NCBI RefSeq assembly: GCF_050742655.1
Contig: NZ_JBOIGG010000017.1
Span: 10,144-74,143 of the forward strand
DNA: 64,000 nt
Source: Paraburkholderia sp.
GTDB lineage: Bacteria > Pseudomonadota > Gammaproteobacteria > Burkholderiales > Burkholderiaceae
Direction: 5' to 3'
Position numbers and translations under genes: made by a program. This document shows positions 12,334 to 25,315 of this stretch, piece by piece. Positions within the stretch are counted from its first letter, which is position 1. Each line of letters opens with the position of its first letter. The notes below the pieces were generated by a model, which saw nothing but the letters and a program-made list of their open reading frames with translations, had not been told where the DNA came from and searched no databases.

Positions 12334-12758
12334 GATGTCTGTCTCGCACACGCGATGAGCCTGTCGCGGCAAACAGGCACATCGTTTCGTTCTCCCGCTG
12401 CTTCGGCATCGCTGACACGCTCCTCGTAAAACGTTCGTGGCCTACTCACACGACGCTAACGTGTCCCGCACGGGTCGATGTCAACAATTGTCACCGCGAG
12501 AAAACCTCCGCCGCCGGCCTCATGCAGCCGCTACCGCGAAGCCACCCCAGTTCCTCCCGCCTCACCAAACCACGCCCCCGAAAGAGTTACAATTGCGCTC
12601 TTTCGAGCACAAAACCCGTACAAAACCGTGCCCATGCGCCGGCCTCGTACCGTTTGTCTCGTCCCGGATTCACCTTGCGACTGCCCGCTCCAGTTGTCAC
12701 CGAGCGCTGTGACCCACGTCGACCGGTCGCAAATCCACTGATTGATTAAAGGTCTTCC

Positions 12759-13853
12759 ATGAGCCTCAAATGCGGCATCGTCGGCCTGCCGAACGTCGGC
12801 AAGTCCACCCTGTTCAACGCACTGACCAAGGCCGGCATCGCCGCCGAAAACTATCCGTTCTGCACGATCGAACCGAACGTCGGCATCGTCGAGGTGCCGG
12901 ACGCGCGTCTGAACGCACTCGCCGAGATCGTCAAGCCGGAGCGGATCGTGCCGGCCGTCGTCGAATTCGTCGACATCGCGGGCCTCGTTGCGGGCGCGAG
13001 CAAGGGCGAAGGGCTCGGCAACCAGTTCCTCGCGAACATCCGAGAAACCGATGCGATCACGCACGTCGTGCGCTGCTTCGAGGATGACAACGTGATCCAC
13101 GTCGCGGGCAAGGTCGATCCGCTGTCGGACATCGAGGTGATCAACACGGAGCTCGCGCTCGCCGACCTCGCCACCGTCGAAAAGTCGCTGTCGCGCTACT
13201 CGAAGGCCGCGAAATCGGGTAACGACAAGGAAGCCGGGAAGCTCGCCGCCGTGCTGGAAAAAGTCCGCGCGCAGCTCGACCAGGCGAAGCCGGTCCGCGC
13301 GCTGTCGCTGTCGGACGATGAAGAGGCGATCCTCAAGCCGTTCTGCCTGATCACCGCGAAACCCACGATGTACGTCGCGAACGTGATGGACGATGGCTTC
13401 GAGAACAACCCGCATCTCGACGCAGTCCGCCGCCACGCGGAAGCGGAAAACGCACCGGTCATCGCGGTGTGTGCAGCGATCGAAGCGGAGATCGCCGATC
13501 TCGCCGACGAAGACAAGGAAGTCTTCCTCGCCGACATGGGCATGGAAGAGCCAGGTCTGAATCGCGTGATCCGCGCGGGCTTCAAACTGCTCGGTCTGCA
13601 GACCTACTTCACCGCCGGCGTGAAGGAAGTACGCGCGTGGACGATCCACATCGGCGACACGGCGCCGCAGGCAGCCGGCGTGATCCACACGGATTTCGAG
13701 CGCGGCTTCATCCGTGCGCAGACCATCGGCTTCGCGGACTTCGTCGCGTACAAGGGCGAACACGGCGCGAAGGAAGCCGGCAAGATGCGCGCCGAAGGCA
13801 AGGAATATGTCGTGCACGACGGCGACGTGATGAACTTCCTGTTCAACGTCTGA
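12759..13853 (+). CDS. ychF: redox-regulated ATPase YchF
   Basis: [38 protein letters not shown] and C-terminal TGS domain ([10 protein letters not shown]). Confidence 0.98.
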
Positions 13854-13860
13854 CGACGAA
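13843..13860 (+). repeat. degenerate direct repeat copy 1 (overlaps ychF stop)
   Basis: TCAACGTCtgaCGACGAA matches 27890-27907 at 15 of 18 positions. Confidence 0.4.
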
Positions 13861-13875
13861 CCACACCCCGGATTG

Positions 13876-13907
13876 ACGACCCCATGGACCTTGCGCCATG
13901 GGGTCGT
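13876..13907. terminator. hairpin between convergent ychF and 13937 gene
   Basis: ACGACCCCATGG-accttgcg-CCATGGGGTCGT, a perfect 12-bp stem with no U-tract. Confidence 0.55.
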
Positions 13908-13936
13908 GAAGAACCTGCGTCAGGTCAGCGTCGACG

Positions 13937-14470
13937 TCATTGCGCGCCCGACGTCTTGTCCACACCGGTTACCGTCTTGTACGGTGGCACGGCCTTCGGG
14001 TCGTTCATCGTCTTGTCGATCACCTGATCGACGTCGGCGGTCTTTCCGAGTTCGACCAGAAACTTCTGCTTGTCGAAGTCCGGCGACACGCATCCTTCCA
14101 CATAGATAAAACGCCGTTGCAGCGTGAGCCACAGCGTCGTGCTGTCACGCCAATGGGTCGCGTAGTTGATGTTCGTCAGGCGCCGTCCAACCGCCTCCTC
14201 GATCTCCTTGTCGTACAGATAGCCGTTCGACAGCCGGCAACGCCCCTCCACCCAGCAGCTGTTGCCGCGCTCGATCCGGTAATGCGCCTCGTCGAGCCAC
14301 TCCTGCTCGGTCTCGAGCGGCCCGAGCGGCACCGGGCAATCGGCGATCGCCTTCGAGACCTGGAAGAACGGATCGTGGCCGCGGTTCACGCGCGTTTCGT
14401 CGGCGAGCGTCACCTGGCTTGCCAGCGAAATCACGAGTGCCGCGATGCGGCAACCGGTCAGGTATTTCAT
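13937..14470 (-). CDS. secreted Cys-containing hypothetical protein (BON-like C-terminal half possible)
   Basis: Start ATG 14470 (MKYLTGC...), signal-peptide-like N-terminus, CP..GP and GNSCW.EGRCR motifs, and normal codon usage. Confidence 0.65.
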   Translation of the reverse strand: MKYLTGCRIAALVISLASQVTLADETRVNRGHDPFFQVSKAIADCPVPLGPLETEQEWLDEAHYRIERGNSCWVEGRCRLSNGYLYDKEIEEAVGRRLTNINYATHWRDSTTLWLTLQRRFIYVEGCVSPDFDKQKFLVELGKTADVDQVIDKTMNDPKAVPPYKTVTGVDKTSGAQ

Positions 14471-14547
14471 CGGCGTCCTTCTCCTTTGCGTTCTCTGGCA
14501 TCGAGCATCGGCACGTCGTCGGCAATCATACTGCGCGGGCCTGCCCA

Positions 14548-14640
14548 CTTGCGCGCGAGCAGCGCGACGCGCCTCGCTTCGGCCAGACAATACGCGCACG
14601 CGGCGCCGACGATAGCGCCATCCATCACCACGAAGTCGAC
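14548..14640 (-). pseudogene. decayed N-terminal fragment of a DAO-type FAD-dependent oxidoreductase
   Basis: Reads VDFVVMDGAIVGAACAYCLAEARRVALLARK, a Rossmann beta-alpha-beta with the GxGxxG motif damaged. It has no start codon of its own and no continuation. Confidence 0.45.
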
Positions 14641-14642
14641 GT

Positions 14643-15239
14643 TCAAATCAGTTTCTCGCGATCCAGCCAGGCCACGACCGCGTTCGCTGACTGCTCCGCA
14701 TTCCATTGCGCGGTGTCGAGACGTAGCTCCGGTTGTTCGGGCGCCTCGTAGGGCGAGTCGATACCCGTGAAATGCGTGATGAGTCCGCTGCGCGCCTTGC
14801 GATAGAGGCCCTTCGGATCGCGTGCCTCCGCGACCTCGAGCGGTGCGTCGACGTGGATTTCGACGAACTCGCGTTCGCCGAACAGTCGCCGTGCGGCGAG
14901 CCGCTGCTCGCGAAACGGCGAGATGAACGTGACGAGCACGATCAGTCCGGCATCGACCATCAGCCTCGCGACCTCGCCGGCACGCCGCACGTTCTCGACG
15001 CGATCCTCATCGGTGAAGCCGAGATCGCGGTTGAGCCGCTGACGCACGTTGTCACCGTCAAGCACAAAGCAGTGGCGGTTGCGCGCGAAGAGCCGCTCGT
15101 CGACGAGATTCGCGATCGTCGATTTACCCGCTCCCGACAAACCGGTGAACCATAGTACGCACGGCTGCTGGTTCTTCTGCGCAGCGCGGGCTTCGGCACC
15201 GATCGTCACGTTCTGCCAGATGAGATTGTTTCCACTCAT
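14643..15239 (-). CDS. cysC: adenylyl-sulfate (APS) kinase
   Basis: [13 protein letters not shown]-loop, LDGDNVR, GFTDEDR.EN, ISP and [22 protein letters not shown] motifs. Confidence 0.95.
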
Positions 15240-15269
15240 GGACGAATTCTCCAGACACCCCGCGTGGGC

Positions 15270-16451
15270 TTAGGGCTGCGATACCGCCGCCGTGCGACGC
15301 AACGCCGCAAGCGGGACAAGACCTGCCGACGCGACCGCGAATACGAGCATAACCGCGTAGATCGCCGGGTAGCCGGTGCGGCTCGCGACGAAGCCCGCAG
15401 CGATACCGCCCGCGGCCACGCCGAGATCCCAGAACGACGTGAACATCCCGAGCGCGGCGCCGTGCTGCGAGGTATCGGTGTTGCGGATCACGACGAGCGC
15501 AAGCGACGGATACAGCAGCGACAAACCAAGCCCCATCGTAAAACCGCCAGCTACCGCAACAGCAAGCGAAGGCGCGATGCCGACCAGCGCAAGGCCGCAC
15601 GCCTCGACAAGCGCGGCGCCCAGCGCGACGCGGTATGGTCCGAGCTTGTCGGGCAGGTGACCGAGGAAGAGCCGCGACCCGACATACGCGAAGCCGAACA
15701 CGTTGAACGCCAGGATGCCATTGTCGATGCCCCGCTTCGCCATGTGCAGCGAAACGAACGACGCGAGTGCCGCATAACCCATCGATGCAAACGCGAGCGC
15801 TATACCAGGCACGAATGCCGTACCCGGAAAGAACGCCGTCTTTTTCGCCGCGCGGACACGTGCCGGCGCCGCCTTGCGCGAAATCAGCAGCGCGCCCACC
15901 ACCGGCGTGACCGTGCAGACCGCCCAGACCGACCCGAAATCGAGCGCCTTCATGAGCATCACGCCGGCGAGCGCGCCGAGCGTGACGCCAGTCCACATGC
16001 TAACGCCGTACAGGCCGACGATCTTGCCGCGCCGCTCGGCCGGCGCGAGTGCGACGAGCCACGTTGCGCCGGCCGTGAACACCGCCCCCTCGCCGATGCC
16101 GTGCAGCACCCTGACCGCGACCAGCGCGTCCAGGTTCGACGCCACCGCATAGCTCGCACCCGCGAGCGCGCAGAGCACGGCCCCGGCCATCATCAGTGTC
16201 TTGTGGCCGATGCGATCGGACAGACGCCCGGCGATGGGCCGCGTAATCACCACGGCCACCGCGATCGCAGCGATCACCGTACCGACGCTGACGTCGCCGC
16301 CGCCCATCCTGTCTTTCACGTAGAACGGCAGGACGGAAAGCGTCGCACCGATGCCGAAGTGACAACAGAAAAGGCCGAGAAAAAGCGGCATGTAAGTCCC
16401 GTAGAACCGCCACCCCGATGTCTTGACGCTGGCTTCAGTGCGCTCGTCCAT
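15270..16451 (-). CDS. MFS transporter
   Basis: About 12 hydrophobic segments, motif A GRLSDRIGHK and second-half LPDKLG. Confidence 0.9.
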   Translation of the reverse strand: MDERTEASVKTSGWRFYGTYMPLFLGLFCCHFGIGATLSVLPFYVKDRMGGGDVSVGTVIAAIAVAVVITRPIAGRLSDRIGHKTLMMAGAVLCALAGASYAVASNLDALVAVRVLHGIGEGAVFTAGATWLVALAPAERRGKIVGLYGVSMWTGVTLGALAGVMLMKALDFGSVWAVCTVTPVVGALLISRKAAPARVRAAKKTAFFPGTAFVPGIALAFASMGYAALASFVSLHMAKRGIDNGILAFNVFGFAYVGSRLFLGHLPDKLGPYRVALGAALVEACGLALVGIAPSLAVAVAGGFTMGLGLSLLYPSLALVVIRNTDTSQHGAALGMFTSFWDLGVAAGGIAAGFVASRTGYPAIYAVMLVFAVASAGLVPLAALRRTAAVSQP

Positions 16452-16509
16452 CTGTCGCTCCCTGTCCCGTTACTGAGCTAGTCACCACTGTCTCCTCCAC
16501 ACCGCGCCG

Positions 16510-17364
16510 CTAGCCCGGCATCGCGTGGAAAAAGTGTGTCGGCAGATGGACGGCGAGCCCCTCATAAATTTCCGCGCAAACCGCCAGACCGTCGCTCGCA
16601 AACGTGCCGGCGGGCGGCGTACCGACGCGGATCACCGACTTGCCCGTATGAAGCAGACGCGCGGCCACCGCGAAATCGCCGACGAGCGCACAACCCGGCG
16701 CGACCATCCGCGTGCGCACGATGATCGTGCCGTTCGCCTTCAGGTCGGCGAGGATGCTGCCCTTGCCGAGCATCTGATGATAGTAGTCGACGGAATTGAC
16801 GATCATCGCGTGCGCGGTCGCGCCGTTCTGCTCGATCTCGTTGCAGGCGGCCAGCACGCCGTCGACATAGCTGCCCGAATACTTGAGCTGCGTCACGCCG
16901 GGGTAGTTCAGAAGCCCGTTGGGGCCGAGCGTCAGCGCCTGGTTCTCGGCGGTCGCGAGCCGCACCAGCAGACGGTAGTCGATGAACTCGGCGATCGCCC
17001 GCTCGTCGGCGAAGAGCGCTTCGGGAAGCTGCACCCATCCGGAGATCGGCCGCACGGCAGCCTCGCTCGTGCCGAAGCGGAACGTTGCTTCTTGACGGAG
17101 CGCCCCTTCGAAGACATCTCCCGTCTGGCCCGCGGGCGGCCGGCTCTCGGACCAGAAGCGGCTCGTCGGCGTGTCGATGCGGCGCTTCCGGAACAGCTGG
17201 CTCACCATCAGGCGCGGCCGGTCCTGCGTCGGCTTGAACGCCTCGGTGATCGTGTAATCGAAATGAACCTCGGTGTTCGGACCATGGACGACGAACGCGC
17301 GGGCAAATGCCTCGCCCGACGAAAGCTGCTCGACTGCATCGACCGCGGATGGATTGCCTGACAT
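16510..17364 (-). CDS. HK97-fold capsid-like protein, putative family 3 encapsulin shell
   Basis: EATFRFGTSEAAVRPISGWVQLPEALFADERAIAEFIDYRLLVRLATAENQAL resembles the HK97 major-capsid P-domain/spine helix. The C-terminal LVGDF and EIYEGLAV..P..F also fit. It is 284 aa, sits inside a biosynthetic operon, and has no phage genes nearby. Confidence 0.78.
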   Translation of the reverse strand: MSGNPSAVDAVEQLSSGEAFARAFVVHGPNTEVHFDYTITEAFKPTQDRPRLMVSQLFRKRRIDTPTSRFWSESRPPAGQTGDVFEGALRQEATFRFGTSEAAVRPISGWVQLPEALFADERAIAEFIDYRLLVRLATAENQALTLGPNGLLNYPGVTQLKYSGSYVDGVLAACNEIEQNGATAHAMIVNSVDYYHQMLGKGSILADLKANGTIIVRTRMVAPGCALVGDFAVAARLLHTGKSVIRVGTPPAGTFASDGLAVCAEIYEGLAVHLPTHFFHAMPG

Positions 17365-17425
17365 GAGCTTGCCTCGCTATAAGGAGAAAACGGATTGAAG
17401 AACCAGACGCGATACTGAAGACGGG

Positions 17426-18151
17426 TCACCGGATCGCATGGCAAACCAGTCGCTCGTAAAACGGACGATGGTGCTCGAAGTACTGCTTGAGCATCGGGTG
17501 GTTGTCGACCGTCGCCTCATAGTCGTGGTGCTGCGCGCTGAATCCCGAGCTTTGCGACACGCCCGTATGCCACTGCCGCGTGCGCTGCCATTCGGGCCGG
17601 TCCTCGGGCTGCCATGTCAGCGCATGGTCGAGGAACGGCAGCCCGGTCTCGCAGCACCAGCGCGCGATGACCGCTCGCGGGTCCGCGATGAGCCGCTCGG
17701 CGTCGATCACGATCGGTAACGAGGACTTCAGGCCGCGCACGAGTTCGAAGATCTCGAACAGGTGCTCATAGCCCACCTCGGGACAGGTGATCGTGGGCTT
17801 CATGTGATATAGCGAACTGATCGTCCGATGCGGCTCGCGCACGATGAATGTGTGCTCGAAATCGGCGATCGCTTCGGGATGCTCGAACAGATAGCGGTAG
17901 CGGTGCTCGACCGTGTCCTTGAAGAACACGGGACGCGTCTGCGCCAGCGCGCGCATCTGCGCGAACAGCGCGGCCTCCGATTCCACTTCGACGGTCGAGC
18001 CGTCGACCTCCGGCACGCTCACGCGCCCGGTATCGATCAGTGTGACGAGCGGCTCATGGATCACGGTCACGTCGCCGCGCTCGAGCATCATGCGCAGGAA
18101 CGCCGTCGACATCGCCCGCTGATGGGCCCACATCGCGATGATCTTGTTCAC
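17426..18151 (-). CDS. sulfotransferase family protein
   Basis: N-terminal IIAMWAHQRAMSTAFLR (5'-PSB-like loop), HEPL, IVREPHRTISS (3'-PB-like) and VIDAERL. GTG start with a GGAGG Shine-Dalgarno. Confidence 0.75.
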   Translation of the reverse strand: MNKIIAMWAHQRAMSTAFLRMMLERGDVTVIHEPLVTLIDTGRVSVPEVDGSTVEVESEAALFAQMRALAQTRPVFFKDTVEHRYRYLFEHPEAIADFEHTFIVREPHRTISSLYHMKPTITCPEVGYEHLFEIFELVRGLKSSLPIVIDAERLIADPRAVIARWCCETGLPFLDHALTWQPEDRPEWQRTRQWHTGVSQSSGFSAQHHDYEATVDNHPMLKQYFEHHRPFYERLVCHAIR

Positions 18152-18177
18152 GCATCACCTCCCTTGATCCGTCGCAA

Positions 18178-19161
18178 TCATTGCGACCACGCAGTCGGCA
18201 GACGATCCCAACGATGCCGGCGTAACTCCGCCAGCAGCTCGGGCGACAGCGGCGGCGCATCGCTCACGGCCATGTTGGCCCGCACGTTCGCGATCTGTCG
18301 CATGCCGGGAATCACCGTCGACACGGCCGGGTGATGAAGAATGAAACGCAGCGCGAGTTCCGGCAGCGTGGCGCCGTCGGGCACGATGCGCTTCAGCGCG
18401 TCGGCCCGCTCGACCGTCGGTCCGAGATTCTCCGGACCGAAGTAGGTGCTGCGCCAGTCTTCGGGCGGGAAGGTGCTCGTTCGCGTCAGCGTGCCGGTCA
18501 GGCCGCCTTCGTCGAAAGGCACGCGCGCGATGATCCCGATGTCGCGTTCCAGCGCCACGCGGAACAATTCGTCTTCGGGCGCCTGATCGAAAATGTTGTA
18601 GATCACCTGGATCACGTCGATGAGCCCGGTCTCGATCGCCTTCACGCAATTGCCCGGCTCCCAGCGATTCACGCTGATCCCGATGCCCTCGATGAGACCT
18701 TCGGCACGCAGGTCGCTCATCGTGCGCTGCCACGATTCGTCGTTGGCCCAGCGGTCGTCCCACACATGGAATTGCATCAGGTCGATCCGGTCGACACCGA
18801 GATTCTCGATACTGCGCTGGGTGTACTCGCGAATGTGCGCGGCCGGAAACACGTCGTCGAGCGTGTCGTTGGCGCGAGGCGGCCACTCGCGGTTCTTCGG
18901 TGGAATCTTCGTCGCGACGTACAGCCGACGATCAGAATGCGCATGCAGCACGCGACCCAGCATCTGCTCGCTGATACCGCGTCCGTAGACCCATGCGGTG
19001 TCGAAAAAATTGCAGCCGGCTTCGACTGCCGCATCGAGGCAGAGAGGCGCGGTGTCGTAGTTGGCACCAGTGAAATTGCCCGGGCCGCCGGCAATGCCCC
19101 ACATGCCGTAGCCGATCTCGCTAACCTGCCAGCCGAGACGTCCCATCCTTCGGTAATGCAT
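18178..19161 (-). CDS. aldo/keto reductase
   Basis: VSEIGYGMW, GCNFFDTAWVYG.G.SE, VATK, SIENLGVDRIDLMQFH and VIPG motifs. Start moved to ATG 19161 (MHYRRMG), with AGGAG upstream. Confidence 0.92.
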   Translation of the reverse strand: MHYRRMGRLGWQVSEIGYGMWGIAGGPGNFTGANYDTAPLCLDAAVEAGCNFFDTAWVYGRGISEQMLGRVLHAHSDRRLYVATKIPPKNREWPPRANDTLDDVFPAAHIREYTQRSIENLGVDRIDLMQFHVWDDRWANDESWQRTMSDLRAEGLIEGIGISVNRWEPGNCVKAIETGLIDVIQVIYNIFDQAPEDELFRVALERDIGIIARVPFDEGGLTGTLTRTSTFPPEDWRSTYFGPENLGPTVERADALKRIVPDGATLPELALRFILHHPAVSTVIPGMRQIANVRANMAVSDAPPLSPELLAELRRHRWDRLPTAWSQ

Positions 19162-19199
19162 CGCGACTCCTCGCTTGTAACTACCTTGTGTCATTCGTA

Positions 19200-22100
19200 T
19201 CAAGCAGCACCCAGCAACTGACGGCCATATCGGGCAATCGCGTTGTCCAGATCAACGCCCGCGAGACCATGCGTCCGTTCGAGCGCATCGCAACCCGCCC
19301 GGTCGAAGAGACCGGGATTGTCCGTCAGCAAAACCGAGAACGTCGCGGCCAGCGCGGCCTCGTCGTTTTGCGCGGACGGCAGCAACCGGCGCAGCAAACT
19401 GAGTTCGTGTGATCCATGCTGCGCGATGTGCGCGTCCAGCGCGGCAAGCCATTGCCCGCACGAGAGCGTATCGAGCGTGGCGCCGGCATGCGAAAACGCT
19501 TCGGTGAAGCACACGCTCCGCGGATGGAATACGTGGTACGTACGGTCCCATGCGTCGATATCGAAGACTGCCGATACCACGCGGGACGCGACGTAGTCGA
19601 CCGGCGACCAGTCCGAACGCATCGGCACGGAGGGTCTCGCGTTCAGCTGCGCCATCGCCGTCAGCAGGAAGTGCGTGAGCGCCCGCGGATTCGGTACACA
19701 ACGTGCTCCCTCGCCGCCCGACGGCATCACCTCGCCGAGCCGGAACACCGTGACCGGCAATCCGGTCAGACGTGCGTCGAGCAGCATCCGTTCGGCGATC
19801 CACTTCGAGCGGCTGTAGCCGGAACGCGGAATGATCGCGTGGCTGGGATCGAACGCTTCGTCGAGCGGCGAAGTGCGGCGCGCGGCTTCCTGCTCGAACG
19901 CGCCGAGCGTCGACACGAAGAAGAACGGCTTCTCGCGACGCTCGAGCGACAGGCGCAGTAACTGCTGCGTCGCGAGCACGTTCGACGCTCGATGCGCACG
20001 ATAGTCGTAAGCGAAATTGACGAGCGCTCCGCAGTGGACGATCGCGTCGCAGCGCGCGGCGAGTGCGTCGCGATGCGATGGGTCGAGGCCGAGTCCCGGT
20101 GCGGCGAGATCGCCGCCGACCGCATGAAGTCTCCCCGCATAACGCGCATCCCACAGATGCTTTTCGTCGAAGCATTCGACCAGCCTGCGCTGCGGATCGC
20201 CGTCCGTGCGCAGCAGGACGACGACCTCCAGATCGTCGTCGCGATCCAGCAGCGCCTTCGCGAGATAATTGCCGACGAAGCCGGTGCCGCCCGTCAGCAG
20301 CACGCTGCGAGGTGCGTGTCGTCGGGCCAGCGATGGCATGTACCGTGCGTCACGCGTCTCGCGGTTACCGATGCTCGCGTCCGCAGCCGGCGATATGTCG
20401 AACAGCTTCCCGTGCGCGGTCGCGAAGAAGCGCGCATCGCGCTCCATCAGCGCCTCTTCGGGTTCGCCCGTATCGCCGCCTGCAAGCAGATGCTCGATGT
20501 GCCGGCCGGCCTTCGCCGCGCTCGCATGCGCGAGCAGATCGCTGACGCTAAAGCGCAGCGCAAACAGACGCTCGAGTTCAATCGCCGTCGCAAGCGCGTT
20601 GAGCGAGTCCCCGCCGGCTTCGAAGAAGTCGTCGTCGACGCCGAGATCCGCGCAGCGCAACTGCGCACCAAACACCGCCAGCACGCGCGCGATCACGTCG
20701 TCATCTGCGACGGGCACGGCGTGAAGCATCTGAAGATTGGTGTCGGCGAGATAGTCGTCGAGCTGTTCCTGCAGGACCTTGCGATTCACTTTCCCGCTTT
20801 CCGCCAGCGGCATCGAGGCGAGCACGAAGTAATGCCGCGGCAGGGACGCGCGCGGCAGAACCCCGCGCAGATGCCGCTCGATTGTCGTGCGGTCGAGATC
20901 CGCTGCGCCGGTCACGAAGAGTGCAATCGACCGCGTGCCGCGCTCGCCCGCGACGAATGCCTTCGCGTGATGCACATGGGGGCAGCGCTCCGCGGCCGCC
21001 TCGATCTCGCCGAGTTCGATCCGCACGCCGCCCACCTTCACCTGAAAGTCCTTGCGGCCGACAAAACGCAGTTCGCCGTGGCTGTCGAAATAGCCGAGAT
21101 CGCCGGTACGGTAGAGCGTCGCACCGGGAATCGTCGGGAACGGGTTGTCGATGAACACGTGCCCGGTCAGTTCGGGTCGTCCGACGTAGCCGGCGCCGAC
21201 GCAGATACCCCCGATCAGCAACTCGCCGCACGCGCCGGGCGGCAGCGGTCGCAGCTCAGGGTCGACGATGACGACATAGCAGTTGTCGATCGGGCGGCCA
21301 ATCGGGATCGACATGCCGTCTGCCGCCTCAGCCGGATGAAAGACCATGCCGATCGACGTCTCCGTCGGACCATACGCGTTCGTGATCCGCAGATGCGGCA
21401 ACAGCGTGCGCATCTTGTGAACCATCGGCGGCGTAATTTCCTCGCCGCCCACGATCAACTCCGCGAGCGTCGAGAGCTTCGCGCAAACCTGGTCGTCGTG
21501 TTCGGCGAGTGCAACGATCTGATTGAACACGCTCGGCACGAAGTCCGTCATCGTGACGCGATAGCGCGCGATCGTGTCGACCGTCGTCTCGAGATCGAGG
21601 AAAGCACCCTGCTTCGGAATCACGACTTTCGCGCCGGTCGTCAGCGGCCAGAACAGTTGCCAGACCGACGAGTCGAACGTGTGCCGACTGTTTTGCAGAA
21701 TGCACGCGCTGTCGCCTGCCACACGATCGAAATAGCGCGACATGAAGCGGAAGCGGTTTGCGAGCCCGCCGTGCAGGTTCAGCGCGCACTTCGCGCGACC
21801 CGTCGTGCCCGACGTGAAAATGCCGTAGATCGCATCGCCCGGTTCGATCCCGACATCGGGCCGCGCGCGCTGCGGCTCGAGCAGATCGACGTCGATCGCG
21901 AGCGCGCCGGCGCGAAATGCCGCGGGCAAATCGTCTGCGTTTGCGCAGACCACGACGTCGCTCGACAGCTCCTCCAGTGCCTGCACGAGACGCTCGACAG
22001 GCCAGGCATGATCGAGCGGCACGAACGCGGCGCCGAGCTTCATCAGCGCGTGATACGCGACCGGCATCTCGAGACTGTTCACGAGCAGCACCGGAACGAT

Positions 22101-22949
22101 CGAGCCTTTCACCACGCCGCGCGTGGCGAGTTCGACAGCAAAGGCATTCGCCAGGCGATCGAACCCGGCGTAGGTGAGCCAGCGGCCATCGAAGCAAAAC
22201 GCGGGACGTGCCGGGTGCCGGTCGACGCTGTCTTCGATCATCCGTGGAATCGCACGCCACGCACCGTTGTCGTACGCTTCGCCCGCGAGTGCGCCGACCA
22301 CGCTCTCGAACGAAGCGGAGCCGAGACCGCGCGCGGTGCCAGGCGTCGCCTCCGGATCAGTGAGCAATTCGTGCAGGATTTCCGCATACAGCTCGGCGAC
22401 CGCGTCGCACGCCTGCGCCCACGGATCATCCTCCGCGCAGACGGCGATCACCGACAGCATGTCTTCGCCGAGCCGGCACAGGATGCGCACGGCTGCCCGC
22501 CCCGCATTCAGTTCGACGGGGCGACTGATCAGGTCGACCTGCATCGCCCGATCGGGGACGTCGGCGCTGCGCGCGGCATCGAGCAGGCGTAGCGCCTGAT
22601 CGCGCGGCGCGAAGTTCAGCGACTCGTAGGGCCACTGGGTCCAATGCGCGATGCCGGGCACTGTGTCGCGACGGTGGCGGCTATCGACCGTCACCGGCAA
22701 ATAGCGGTCGAGTCGTGTGCATGTCTCGATCGCGGCGAGCGCGGCCGTCAGTGTGAGTGTCGGGACATCCGCGGCCGGTTCGATCCGTCGCACGGGCCTC
22801 GCATAATGGCCGAGTATCTGAACGGCGTATTGATGTGATATCGGACTCGATACAGAAGTTGATATCGGAGTCGATATCGCCGCATCGGCAATATCAAACG
22901 CGCTGGCCGCATTCTCGTTTTCTGAAGTCGTTAAATGTGTTCGCACCAT
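19200..22949 (-). CDS. stand-alone NRPS-like A-T-R (adenylation, carrier, thioester reductase) enzyme
   Basis: A-domain motifs IFTSGTTG, TFDSS, NAYGPTE, YRTGDL, GRKDFQVKVGG.RIELGEIE and SGKVNRK. Carrier-domain DDFFEAGGDSL. Reductase LLTGGTGFVG and YSRSKW (YxxxK). Start is uncertain; 22949 was chosen. Confidence 0.93.
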   Translation of the reverse strand: MVRTHLTTSENENAASAFDIADAAISTPISTSVSSPISHQYAVQILGHYARPVRRIEPAADVPTLTLTAALAAIETCTRLDRYLPVTVDSRHRRDTVPGIAHWTQWPYESLNFAPRDQALRLLDAARSADVPDRAMQVDLISRPVELNAGRAAVRILCRLGEDMLSVIAVCAEDDPWAQACDAVAELYAEILHELLTDPEATPGTARGLGSASFESVVGALAGEAYDNGAWRAIPRMIEDSVDRHPARPAFCFDGRWLTYAGFDRLANAFAVELATRGVVKGSIVPVLLVNSLEMPVAYHALMKLGAAFVPLDHAWPVERLVQALEELSSDVVVCANADDLPAAFRAGALAIDVDLLEPQRARPDVGIEPGDAIYGIFTSGTTGRAKCALNLHGGLANRFRFMSRYFDRVAGDSACILQNSRHTFDSSVWQLFWPLTTGAKVVIPKQGAFLDLETTVDTIARYRVTMTDFVPSVFNQIVALAEHDDQVCAKLSTLAELIVGGEEITPPMVHKMRTLLPHLRITNAYGPTETSIGMVFHPAEAADGMSIPIGRPIDNCYVVIVDPELRPLPPGACGELLIGGICVGAGYVGRPELTGHVFIDNPFPTIPGATLYRTGDLGYFDSHGELRFVGRKDFQVKVGGVRIELGEIEAAAERCPHVHHAKAFVAGERGTRSIALFVTGAADLDRTTIERHLRGVLPRASLPRHYFVLASMPLAESGKVNRKVLQEQLDDYLADTNLQMLHAVPVADDDVIARVLAVFGAQLRCADLGVDDDFFEAGGDSLNALATAIELERLFALRFSVSDLLAHASAAKAGRHIEHLLAGGDTGEPEEALMERDARFFATAHGKLFDISPAADASIGNRETRDARYMPSLARRHAPRSVLLTGGTGFVGNYLAKALLDRDDDLEVVVLLRTDGDPQRRLVECFDEKHLWDARYAGRLHAVGGDLAAPGLGLDPSHRDALAARCDAIVHCGALVNFAYDYRAHRASNVLATQQLLRLSLERREKPFFFVSTLGAFEQEAARRTSPLDEAFDPSHAIIPRSGYSRSKWIAERMLLDARLTGLPVTVFRLGEVMPSGGEGARCVPNPRALTHFLLTAMAQLNARPSVPMRSDWSPVDYVASRVVSAVFDIDAWDRTYHVFHPRSVCFTEAFSHAGATLDTLSCGQWLAALDAHIAQHGSHELSLLRRLLPSAQNDEAALAATFSVLLTDNPGLFDRAGCDALERTHGLAGVDLDNAIARYGRQLLGAA

Positions 22950-23659
22950 TTTTTGTATGGGTAGACACAGAAAGCCACGACAATCGGATACGTCGGTCCA
23001 GACCGACGCGCTTATACACGCATGCTGCACTCCAGCAAACTGCTGCCGCGGTTCCGAAAACTGAAAGCGAGATATCACCGACGGTAAGGCCGCCGTCGAG
23101 CGGATACCTGAAATATGACGTCGTTATGTTTTTATCGCGCGCCCCGACCCTGGGTGAGGCATTGGATTATTTCTTTAGCGGATGAATCGCCGGCACGATT
23201 GGAGCAAGCCATTTTTCGATTGTCAACTGCGATTCGATGGCAAAAACTTTGCGGTCCGCGAACCTCGTAGTTTCGACTGGTCCGGTTTTATCGGGTCGTT
23301 TAAATCCTGAAGAGCGACGCCGTTTACTTCTTTTACGGCATCCGTTTTTCCTGCGAATTTTCCGTAGTCGAACGCTCGCGCAAAATCGCTATCTGAAAAC
23401 CTCTACGTACTTCGATATTTCGATACTTCAATACATCGGGCACGTTCGCCCCAACCTTGCGAAGGTCTTGCACAAGGTCACGCCCGACCTCCATCACCAC
23501 AGGCATATGGTTAAACAAACTGTCCGATAGTATGCTTCGGTGCAAGGTGCGGCACTCGAGCTTTGTCATGCCGATGACGAAGTTCTCGTTGATAGTTCGG
23601 AATGCTTTCCCGGTCTACTCGCAGGATAGGTCTTGTCCAAAGGGGAGTCCCAACAGGTC

Positions 23660-25315
23660 ATGTCTGAGCCGACTGAATACGTCTTCAAGCCGCATGAGCG
23701 GCCAACGCTGCCCGGCTCTCCCTACAATCCAGACCATCCTGGCGCACGGCGCGCCGGATATTTCGTGGTCGGTTGCCTGCTCGGCATCACGCAAGGCCTG
23801 GGCAACGCGCTGGTCACGGTGAATCTGAACTTCGCTCAAGGCACGCTCGGTCTCTTCAGCAACGAGGCCAACTGGCTGAGCGCCGCCTACTTCATGGTCT
23901 ACGTCTCGGCCAATCTGATGCTGGTGAAGTATCGCCAGCAATTCGGCCTGCAGGCCTTTATCCGCTACACCCTCGTGGTGTATGCGCTGATCAACCTGCT
24001 GCACCTGTTCGTTGAAACGTTCTGGATGGCGGTGGCCGTGCGCGCGGTCAGCGCCGTTGCCGCAGCCGGCCTGACGACGCTGGCCATCACCTACCTGCTT
24101 CAGGCGATGCCCACGCCGAAAAAGATGCACGGCATCATGATCGGCATCAGCATTCCCCAGCTTGCCGTTCCGCTCGCGCGCATCCTGTCGCCCGGGCTGC
24201 TGAATGCGGGCGACTGGCACATGCTTTACTGGTTCGAGTTCGCGATGGCGCTCGCGTCGCTCACCGCGGTGATGCTGCTGCCCTTACCGCGCAGCGACCG
24301 CACCAAAGTATTCGAGCCGCTGGACTTCCTCACCTTCGCCCTGCTCGGACCAGGCCTCGCGCTGCTGATCGCCGTGGTTTCCGAAGGACGGATCGAATGG
24401 TGGCTCGAGCGTGCATGGATGGGATGGTCGCTGGCTGCCGGCATTGCGCTGGTCGTCGCAGGGCTGCTGGTCGAACATCGACGTGCGAGCCCGCTGATCA
24501 ATACGCGATTTCTGAGCAGACGCGAGATGGTGCGGCTGATCCTGGTCGCAGCGGCGATCCGTATTCTGCTTTCCGAACAGGCTTTCGGCTCGGTCGGGCT
24601 GTTGACGATATTCGGCATGCTCAACGATCAGATGATTACGCTTAACCTGATCATCCTGAGCGCTTCGATCGCCGGAATCGCGGTCAGCGTATTGACCTTC
24701 AGGGCGGACAACCCCGCCTCAGCGGTTCGGCTGGCCACGCTCCTCATCGCGATTGGCGCATTCATGGATGCCGACGCGACCAACCTCACGCGGCCGGAGA
24801 ATTTCTACTTCACCCAGGCGCTGATCGGGTTCGCGTCGCTGCTGTTCCTCGGGCGTGCGATGGTAATCGGTATGGCGCAGATGCTACTGTCGGGCGGACA
24901 GAATTACGTCAGCTTCGTGGTGCTGTTCAATATCAGCCAGAGTGTCGGCGGACAGGTCGGCACCGCGTTGCTTGGCACCTTTCAGATAATGCGCGAGCGA
25001 TTCCATTCAAACGAACTGGTGCAGACCATCACGCTGGCCAATCCGGTAATCGCCGCACGAATCCGTGCGAATGGCGTGGCTGGGTTTTCGCAGATCGTGT
25101 CGCGTGAAGCCAATATCCTTGCGTATAACGATGTATTCCTGCTCGTTGGGGTACTCGCTGTGATGACATTGATCTGGGGTTTGGTGATTCGTTGGTCGAT
25201 ACGGCGGCGTAACGAGCTTTCGCCGATCATCGTTCTCCAGCAGAAAATAATGCAGGCACAGGCTGCACAAGCCGCACAAGCCGCACAAGCCGCACAAGCC
25301 GCTCATCAAAAATAA
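23660..25315 (+). CDS. MFS efflux inner-membrane subunit (DHA2/EmrB-like)
   Basis: About 14 hydrophobic segments and W.SWRWMFY-like DWHMLYWFEF. First gene of an MFS-MFP-OMF triad. Start moved to ATG 23660. Confidence 0.85.
   Translation: MSEPTEYVFKPHERPTLPGSPYNPDHPGARRAGYFVVGCLLGITQGLGNALVTVNLNFAQGTLGLFSNEANWLSAAYFMVYVSANLMLVKYRQQFGLQAFIRYTLVVYALINLLHLFVETFWMAVAVRAVSAVAAAGLTTLAITYLLQAMPTPKKMHGIMIGISIPQLAVPLARILSPGLLNAGDWHMLYWFEFAMALASLTAVMLLPLPRSDRTKVFEPLDFLTFALLGPGLALLIAVVSEGRIEWWLERAWMGWSLAAGIALVVAGLLVEHRRASPLINTRFLSRREMVRLILVAAAIRILLSEQAFGSVGLLTIFGMLNDQMITLNLIILSASIAGIAVSVLTFRADNPASAVRLATLLIAIGAFMDADATNLTRPENFYFTQALIGFASLLFLGRAMVIGMAQMLLSGGQNYVSFVVLFNISQSVGGQVGTALLGTFQIMRERFHSNELVQTITLANPVIAARIRANGVAGFSQIVSREANILAYNDVFLLVGVLAVMTLIWGLVIRWSIRRRNELSPIIVLQQKIMQAQAAQAAQAAQAAQAAHQK
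25265..25300 (+). repeat. 9-bp coding tandem repeat (GCACAAGCC)x4
   Basis: Four exact copies at 25265, 25274, 25283 and 25292, preceded by a degenerate GCACAGGCT. Encodes the (AQA)n tail of the MFS. Confidence 0.95.

Follow-up and report, generated by a model that had tools for sequence, protein, structure and literature searches.

Among the large encapsulin families, Family 3 ('natural product') is the one without any experimental validation, as of a 2024 review (PMC11664910). One class of gene clusters built around such virus-derived shells, from Micromonospora and Nocardia, was described in 2021 by Andreas and Giessen (PMC8346489, Fig. S9), who proposed that an amino acid is converted to an aldehyde, then to an alcohol and finally to a sulfated hydroxyl, with the aldehyde sequestered by the shell. 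Their proposal covers the whole route except the source of 3'-phosphoadenosine 5'-phosphosulfate (PAPS); within the parts of the paper covered here, the terms 'APS kinase' (APS, adenosine 5'-phosphosulfate) and 'adenylyl' do not occur in the main text, nor does 'PAPS' in the supplements (PMC8346489). Here we analyse a 64,000-nucleotide stretch of the genome of Paraburkholderia sp. (assembly GCF_050742655.1, contig NZ_JBOIGG010000017.1, positions 10,144 to 74,143; hereafter the window), which carries a six-gene operon of this kind ending in cysC, a predicted APS kinase gene. Very probably, this cysC encodes a cluster-specific enzyme that makes PAPS for the sulfotransferase of the same operon. 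Related operons in other Proteobacteria carry a PAPS module in one of two forms, either a stand-alone cysC or cysD with a cysN-cysC fusion, and this two-form module appears to be undescribed for the proteobacterial members of this encapsulin cluster class.

The operon shares with the Micromonospora/Nocardia clusters a reductase resembling a non-ribosomal peptide synthetase (NRPS), a second reductase, a sulfotransferase, a Family 3 shell protein and, usually, a major facilitator superfamily (MFS) transporter, all encoded in the same order. The proteobacterial versions differ in adding, after the MFS gene, cysC or cysD with cysN-cysC and often a DAO-type oxidoreductase. Biosynthetic clusters with an APS kinase of their own are already established; the principle is not new, and the arrangement found here is real but familiar. 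In rhizobia, NodPQ is a dedicated second sulfate-activation system that gives PAPS to the pathway-specific sulfotransferase NodH. The operons of Paracidovorax valerianellae and of an Arenibaculum metagenome-assembled genome (MAG) carry exactly that cysD plus cysN-cysC arrangement, whereas the window operon has the kinase only, without an ATP sulfurylase of its own, and is reliant on the CysDN of the host. In cyanobacterial saxitoxin clusters, the APS kinase SxtO accompanies the sulfotransferase SxtN; it is variably present, its absence presumably being complemented by a genomic copy (PMC2679770). The encapsulin operons likewise have a stand-alone in-cluster APS kinase, variably present, beside a PAPS sulfotransferase, although chemistry and organisms are unrelated and the saxitoxin clusters involve no encapsulin. 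In sulfazecin biosynthesis, the NRPS SulI has an APS-kinase domain serving the sulfotransferase SulN (PMC11298585). Both are NRPS-type pathways in which a PAPS-producing APS kinase is included to serve a sulfotransferase in trans, but in sulfazecin the kinase is fused to the NRPS and a carrier-bound peptide is N-sulfonated, whereas the window operon encodes its kinase separately, in the last gene, and would be expected to O-sulfate an alcohol already released.

The assembly is 6.77 Mb in size and 99.96% complete, and the window lies on its contig C17. The features of the operon, by window position, are as follows:

19200–23078, minus strand: NRPS-like A-T-R enzyme (adenylation, carrier and thioester reductase domains); Pfam AMP-binding, PP-binding and NAD_binding_4, TIGR01746
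18178–19203, minus strand: aldo-keto reductase; PF00248, 173.7 bits
17426–18151, minus strand: predicted PAPS-dependent sulfotransferase of the Sulfotransfer_5 family, 241 amino acids (aa); PF19798, AlphaFold (AF2) model, fold matches, invariant motif residues
16510–17364, minus strand: Family 3 ('natural product') encapsulin shell protein; NF041188 encap_f3, 340.9 bits, cut-off 180
15270–16451, minus strand: MFS transporter, probable exporter; PF07690, 147.6 bits; kept 3' of the encapsulin gene in most related loci
14643–15239, minus strand: predicted APS kinase, cysC, very probably the operon's own PAPS supply; PF01583, 222 bits; TIGR00455, 244.8 bits; in-cluster clade
14498–14642, minus strand: remnant of a gene for a DAO-type flavin adenine dinucleotide (FAD) oxidoreductase; about 1 kb absent relative to loci L124 and L016

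All six genes are on the minus strand and closely spaced, with a 4-nucleotide overlap between the A-T-R stop and the aldo-keto reductase start followed by gaps of 26, 61, 58 and 30 nucleotides down to cysC, and we infer that they are co-transcribed. Coordinates and profile matches agree with the first-pass annotation in making cysC the last gene and a sulfotransferase-like gene the third upstream of it, with the MFS and encapsulin genes between them. The last position of cysC is explained by the almost complete deletion of the DAO gene that follows it in relatives.

The in-cluster APS kinase and its relatives

The protein encoded at 14643–15239 is, as far as its sequence indicates, an APS kinase, predicted to phosphorylate APS to PAPS. 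It matches PF01583 with 222.2 bits over the full profile (positions 1–152 of 152) and TIGR00455 with 244.8 bits against a cut-off of 138.7, and its translation retains intact P-loop, DGD and ISP (FISP) motifs, which we take to be the catalytic motifs of APS kinases.

A search of the genome for other copies of cysC, cysH and cysDN, proposed as a check in the first-pass annotation, detected one cysH-cysD-cysN set, on contig C4, and three APS-kinase loci: the window copy, an intact copy on contig C27 and a split copy on contig C10. The second intact cysC (L013 9920–10531; G000:C27:20636–21247, plus strand) is 49% identical to the operon copy, has a phosphomethylpyrimidine-kinase-like gene on one side and a chaperonin gene on the other, and is one of a clade represented in several genomes of the genus. 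The third (L014 9676–10216; G000:C10:86765–87215, minus strand) is split over two reading frames near the P-loop by a frameshift or a sequencing error. Its neighbours are a DUF4915 gene (317 bits) and genes for a 2849-aa filamentous-haemagglutinin-like protein and a ShlB/FhaC-type transporter.

The relationships among these copies were examined in a maximum-likelihood tree of 39 kinase domains, drawn from this genome, 24 genomes of the genus, other members of the order and the homologous operons of other taxa. The window cysC falls inside a clade with 100/99 support that contains in-cluster copies only, from Trinickia and from a genome of the same genus, G141. This clade adjoins the in-cluster copies of Ramlibacter, Paracidovorax, Noviherbaspirillum and Arenibaculum, together with the kinase domains of CysN-CysC fusions. 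A different clade, with 98/98 support, holds the C27 copy and other stand-alone copies of the genus, and forcing the window cysC into it cost 62 log-likelihood units (p-AU 0.0006 in the approximately unbiased (AU) test, the tested group having been named only after the tree was seen). The lineage of the window cysC is thus distinct from the stand-alone copies of the genus. A recent duplication of the C27 copy as the origin of the window cysC was rejected by the tree and the AU test. Grouping with housekeeping copies, the outcome that the annotation had named as speaking against its own claim, was not what the tree gave.

Alignment of shell homologues led to 76 loci from genome assemblies. The A-T-R, aldo-keto reductase, sulfotransferase and shell genes are collinear in 73 of them, usually with the MFS gene next, and the collinear loci come from Burkholderiales, Alphaproteobacteria, Eremiobacterota and many Actinomycetota. 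Among these fetched loci, an APS kinase gene within 10 kb of the cassette was found in Proteobacteria only. The PAPS module follows the MFS gene in 11 of the 12 proteobacterial cassettes with enough flanking sequence to be informative (the window and G141 counted in), and it occurs in none of the fetched Actinomycetota or Eremiobacterota loci. In Paracidovorax valerianellae and the Arenibaculum MAG (L020 4328–7134; L030 8851–11651), the cysD and cysN-cysC genes found after the MFS gene amount to a full sulfate-activation system of the NodPQ kind. The position of cysC is kept across four families of Burkholderiales and one alphaproteobacterium. Moreover, searches of the Ramlibacter, Noviherbaspirillum and Arenibaculum assemblies found no APS kinase besides the in-cluster one. 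In five Eremiobacterota or Actinomycetota genomes whose cluster has none, a single APS kinase lies elsewhere in each genome. A Stellaceae MAG yielded no APS kinase, and its contig stops right after the MFS gene. Since the module is variable, taking one of two forms in Proteobacteria and being absent from all fetched actinomycete and Eremiobacterota loci, with an APS kinase elsewhere in the five such genomes checked, it provides independent comparative evidence that the conserved sulfotransferase does use PAPS.

Within the genus, a Family 3 shell gene was detected in 3 of 151 sampled genomes and the cassette itself in two. The third shell-positive genome, G093 (L125 9945–11186, G093:C119), carries a different Family 3 class (209 bits to the window shell), whose neighbour is a large NRPS-like gene and which lacks sulfotransferase, aldo-keto reductase and cysC genes; it was excluded from the comparison as a different cluster class.

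Sulfur assimilation in the host

The premise of the first-pass annotation was that many betaproteobacteria reduce APS directly and can dispense with PAPS, and this holds for the present genome. The sole cysH-cysD-cysN set in the whole-genome search adjoins cysB, a gene for a haemoprotein of the sulfite/nitrite reductase family and a uroporphyrinogen-III methyltransferase gene. The encoded CysH scores 293 bits on TIGR02055 (APS_reductase, cut-off 235), stays below the cut-offs of both PAPS-reductase models and has, in its CC and CxxC motifs, the cysteines typical of iron-sulfur enzymes. Given a CysH of the APS-reductase type, sulfate assimilation in the host needs no PAPS, and a role for cysC in feeding a PAPS-reductase route of assimilation was rejected on the same ground. 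More widely, of 201 genomes sampled from the order at 90% completeness or above, 125 gave no APS kinase (the positives include one unpublished genome, G189, used for no other result here), and at least one strong cysC match was present in 22 of the 24 sampled genomes of the genus.

The host CysN has no fused kinase, and no Sat-type ATP sulfurylase was found in the genome search; with a single CysDN, the APS used by the operon can come only from that source. No cysD, cysN or phosphopantetheinyl transferase (PPTase) gene lies within the window, as had been annotated, and the genome encodes two PPTases, on contigs C2 and C15. The genome-wide searches therefore confirm that the operon depends on the cysDN and a PPTase of the host.

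The sulfotransferase, the shell and the predicted pathway

The 17426–18151 product matches PF19798 (Sulfotransfer_5) with an E-value of 4.5e-11 and 43.1 bits against a cut-off of 23.2. An AF2 model was built from an alignment of 35 homologues from related loci and reached a mean predicted local distance difference test (pLDDT) score of 94.6, with neither disordered ends nor a terminal extension. Structural comparison (Foldseek, VIA-align) gave Z scores of 15.6 to the sulfotransferase domain of olefin synthase (OLS, 4gox) and 15.2 to that of CurM (4gbm), with alignments covering 226–229 of the 241 residues, and about 13.5 to the tyrosylprotein sulfotransferases TPST1/2. Ranks 1–36 of the structural matches are PAPS-dependent sulfotransferases without exception. 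No PDB entries were reached by the sequence profile other than these CurM and OLS domains, which also head the structural ranking; for CurM, the family-profile match has an E-value of 1.4e-4 and spans the 3'-phosphate binding (3'-PB) region, and a single-sequence phmmer search of PDB sequences returned chance matches only. These domains differ from the window protein in being parts of polyketide synthase modules that act on carrier-bound beta-hydroxyacyl chains, at 14–16% identity, whereas the window sulfotransferase is free-standing and about 40 residues shorter.

The PAPS-type motifs are well conserved. In the 5'-phosphosulfate (5'-PSB) loop after the first strand, R12, S15 and T16 are invariant in the 35 homologues and have the same spacing as in the 'RSGTT' loop of TPST. 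Equally invariant are the 3'-PB pair R105 and S113, eight residues apart and aligned to the Arg and Ser of CurM, and the pair H32-E33, which could provide the catalytic base. On the strength of the model and these residues, the protein is assigned as a sulfotransferase-fold protein predicted to bind PAPS and to transfer sulfate. The numbers of homologues found for the sulfotransferase (344) and the shell (413) go with matching taxonomic ranges. The modelled sulfotransferase lacks any extension able to serve as a cargo-loading domain, and sulfation may take place inside or outside the shell.

The shell protein has a weak Pfam match to Phage_capsid and scores 340.9 bits on the Family 3 encapsulin model NF041188 (cut-off 180); several of its 413 homologues bear the name Family 3 encapsulin. 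Its gene is embedded among the A-T-R, aldo-keto reductase, sulfotransferase and MFS genes, without phage genes. In the A-T-R enzyme, the A4 motif 'FDSS', read by eye, keeps the Asp that binds the alpha-amino group. The N-terminal region of this enzyme, of some 225–280 aa (window 22300–23078, minus strand), matched no Pfam family and is longer than in most actinomycete homologues. A full-text literature search on natural-product encapsulins after 2021 returned a single review and no characterised product or cargo for this cluster class.

Taken together, these assignments suggest the following pathway. The host CysDN would make APS, normally passed to the APS-type CysH reductase, and the operon kinase would divert part of it to PAPS. 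The A-T-R enzyme would adenylate and load an amino acid and reduce the thioester to an aldehyde, which the aldo-keto reductase would convert to a primary alcohol, the most likely substrate of the sulfotransferase. The 241-aa sulfotransferase would then O-sulfate this alcohol with operon-derived PAPS, and the MFS transporter would carry the product out of the cell. The aldehyde step, being reactive, probably proceeds in confinement within the Family 3 shell. An amino alcohol as substrate, a sulfated final product and this function of the shell are all inferred.

As a compact operon of six genes that brings a PAPS supply of its own, in a Gram-negative host, the Burkholderiales version offers a more practical starting point for heterologous reconstitution than the actinomycete clusters with their high guanine-cytosine content. 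In genome mining, an APS kinase gene beside a sulfotransferase gene can usefully point to sulfated or sulfate-activated metabolites in an order most of whose sampled genomes lack the kinase.

Alternative explanations and the decay of the operon

That the operon carries its own APS kinase to feed sulfation, as the first-pass annotation had put forward, is supported by the lineage of cysC, by synteny and by the fold and motifs of the sulfotransferase, and it is qualified by the intact C27 copy. Several observations weigh against it. The sole other sulfotransferase-family match found in the genome (G000:C16:73153–73770, L130; Sulfotransfer_3, 60 bits) is a possible client of the C27 cysC, and with this second pair PAPS may be made without the operon copy. 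No CysQ-type phosphatase for 3'-phosphoadenosine 5'-phosphate was found above the cut-off of 228.8 in the genome, the best candidate being a gene of the inositol-monophosphatase family (G000:C13:98306–98986, L128) with 94.5 bits. A scan of positions 12500–24500, including the region 5' of the operon, found no promoter-like site, and terminator-like matches there were no more frequent than expected by chance; these scans being uninformative, the operon structure rests on gene spacing and synteny. Finally, the operon is decaying at its 3' end in this lineage, as the loss of the DAO gene shows. Right after the cysC stop, the sequence starts as the FAD-binding N-terminus of a DAO-type oxidoreductase and then breaks off, leaving about 145 bp. 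Approximately 1 kb is missing from the window that is present in L124 (12769–13804) and L016 (12793–13875). The gene is intact in Trinickia terrae and Noviherbaspirillum (L016, L024) and fragmented in G141 and several Trinickia assemblies or MAGs (L017, L018, L045, L124).

These observations bear on two other readings of the operon. According to one, cysC merely lies near the sulfotransferase gene, as a redundant or housekeeping copy that does not serve it, which would fit the second intact cysC on C27 and the strong cysC matches in most sampled genomes of the genus. We regard this as highly improbable, given that the position of cysC is kept over four Burkholderiales families and an alphaproteobacterium, that its lineage stands apart from the stand-alone copies, that in three cassette-bearing assemblies no other APS kinase was found and that host sulfur assimilation needs no PAPS. 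The existence of the intact C27 copy does mean that the operon copy is dedicated and is neither indispensable nor the only route to PAPS in the cell; it probably ensures supply or co-regulation. The other reading holds that the operon is decaying, that its original product is no longer made and that the cysC-sulfotransferase pair is a relic. The DAO gene, deleted here and fragmented in G141 and Trinickia, and the presence of the cassette in only 2 of 151 genomes of the genus favour decay, but the six remaining genes are intact, of full length and conserved in their motifs, and the G141 operon matches it collinearly at 85.6% identity, a sign that the six-gene core is still under selection. A relic is thus very unlikely.

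Two further alternatives concern the sulfotransferase and the fate of its product. That the 17426–18151 protein is instead a kinase, or uses a donor other than PAPS, has some basis in the P-loop nucleoside triphosphatase-like fold of sulfotransferases and in the nucleotide kinases that appear lower in the fold search (template modelling (TM) scores of 0.30–0.40). These kinases lie about 5 Z units below the sulfotransferases, however, no Walker A motif was found in the protein, and the Arg/Ser/Thr of the 5'-PSB loop and the Arg and Ser of the 3'-PB site are invariant, so that a kinase-like P-loop protein, which the annotation had allowed for as a refutation, is scarcely credible. A different question is whether the sulfate is a decoration or an activating group. 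In the latter case, it would be the leaving group on a 1,2-amino alcohol, attack by the amine would give an aziridine or another reactive species, the encapsulin would contain this chemistry, and cysC would still be the PAPS supply. Among solved structures, the nearest are indeed two sulfotransferases of the 'activating' kind, from the curacin and olefin synthase pathways (Z 15.2–15.6, and a profile match), the intermediate predicted here is a 1,2-amino alcohol, and a reactive product would account for the shell. Kurosawa et al. (2022, as relayed in PMC9570651) reported such a reaction for azinomycin-type pathways, in which a vicinal amino alcohol is enzymatically sulfated and the sulfate is then eliminated to give an aziridine. 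On the other hand, likeness of fold is uninformative about the fate of the product, the operon has no gene of unassigned function left for ring closure, and a stable sulfate ester leaving through the MFS exporter is simpler and is what was published for this cluster class (PMC8346489). We therefore consider activation unlikely. Its fullest version is about equally unlikely: the PAPS module would exist to supply a stoichiometric sulfate leaving group, a Wenker-type closure would give an aziridine or related electrophile, and the encapsulin would be the reaction vessel that protects the cell. Supply of PAPS by the operon cysC for sulfation of an exported alcohol remains the reading we prefer.

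On the 3' side of the operon lies a small open reading frame (13939–14472, minus strand) encoding about 177 aa with a signal-peptide-like N-terminus and no family match. Downstream of the T. terrae cluster its region is conserved with a DNA identity of 81.5%, and this reading frame may therefore be part of the transferred block.

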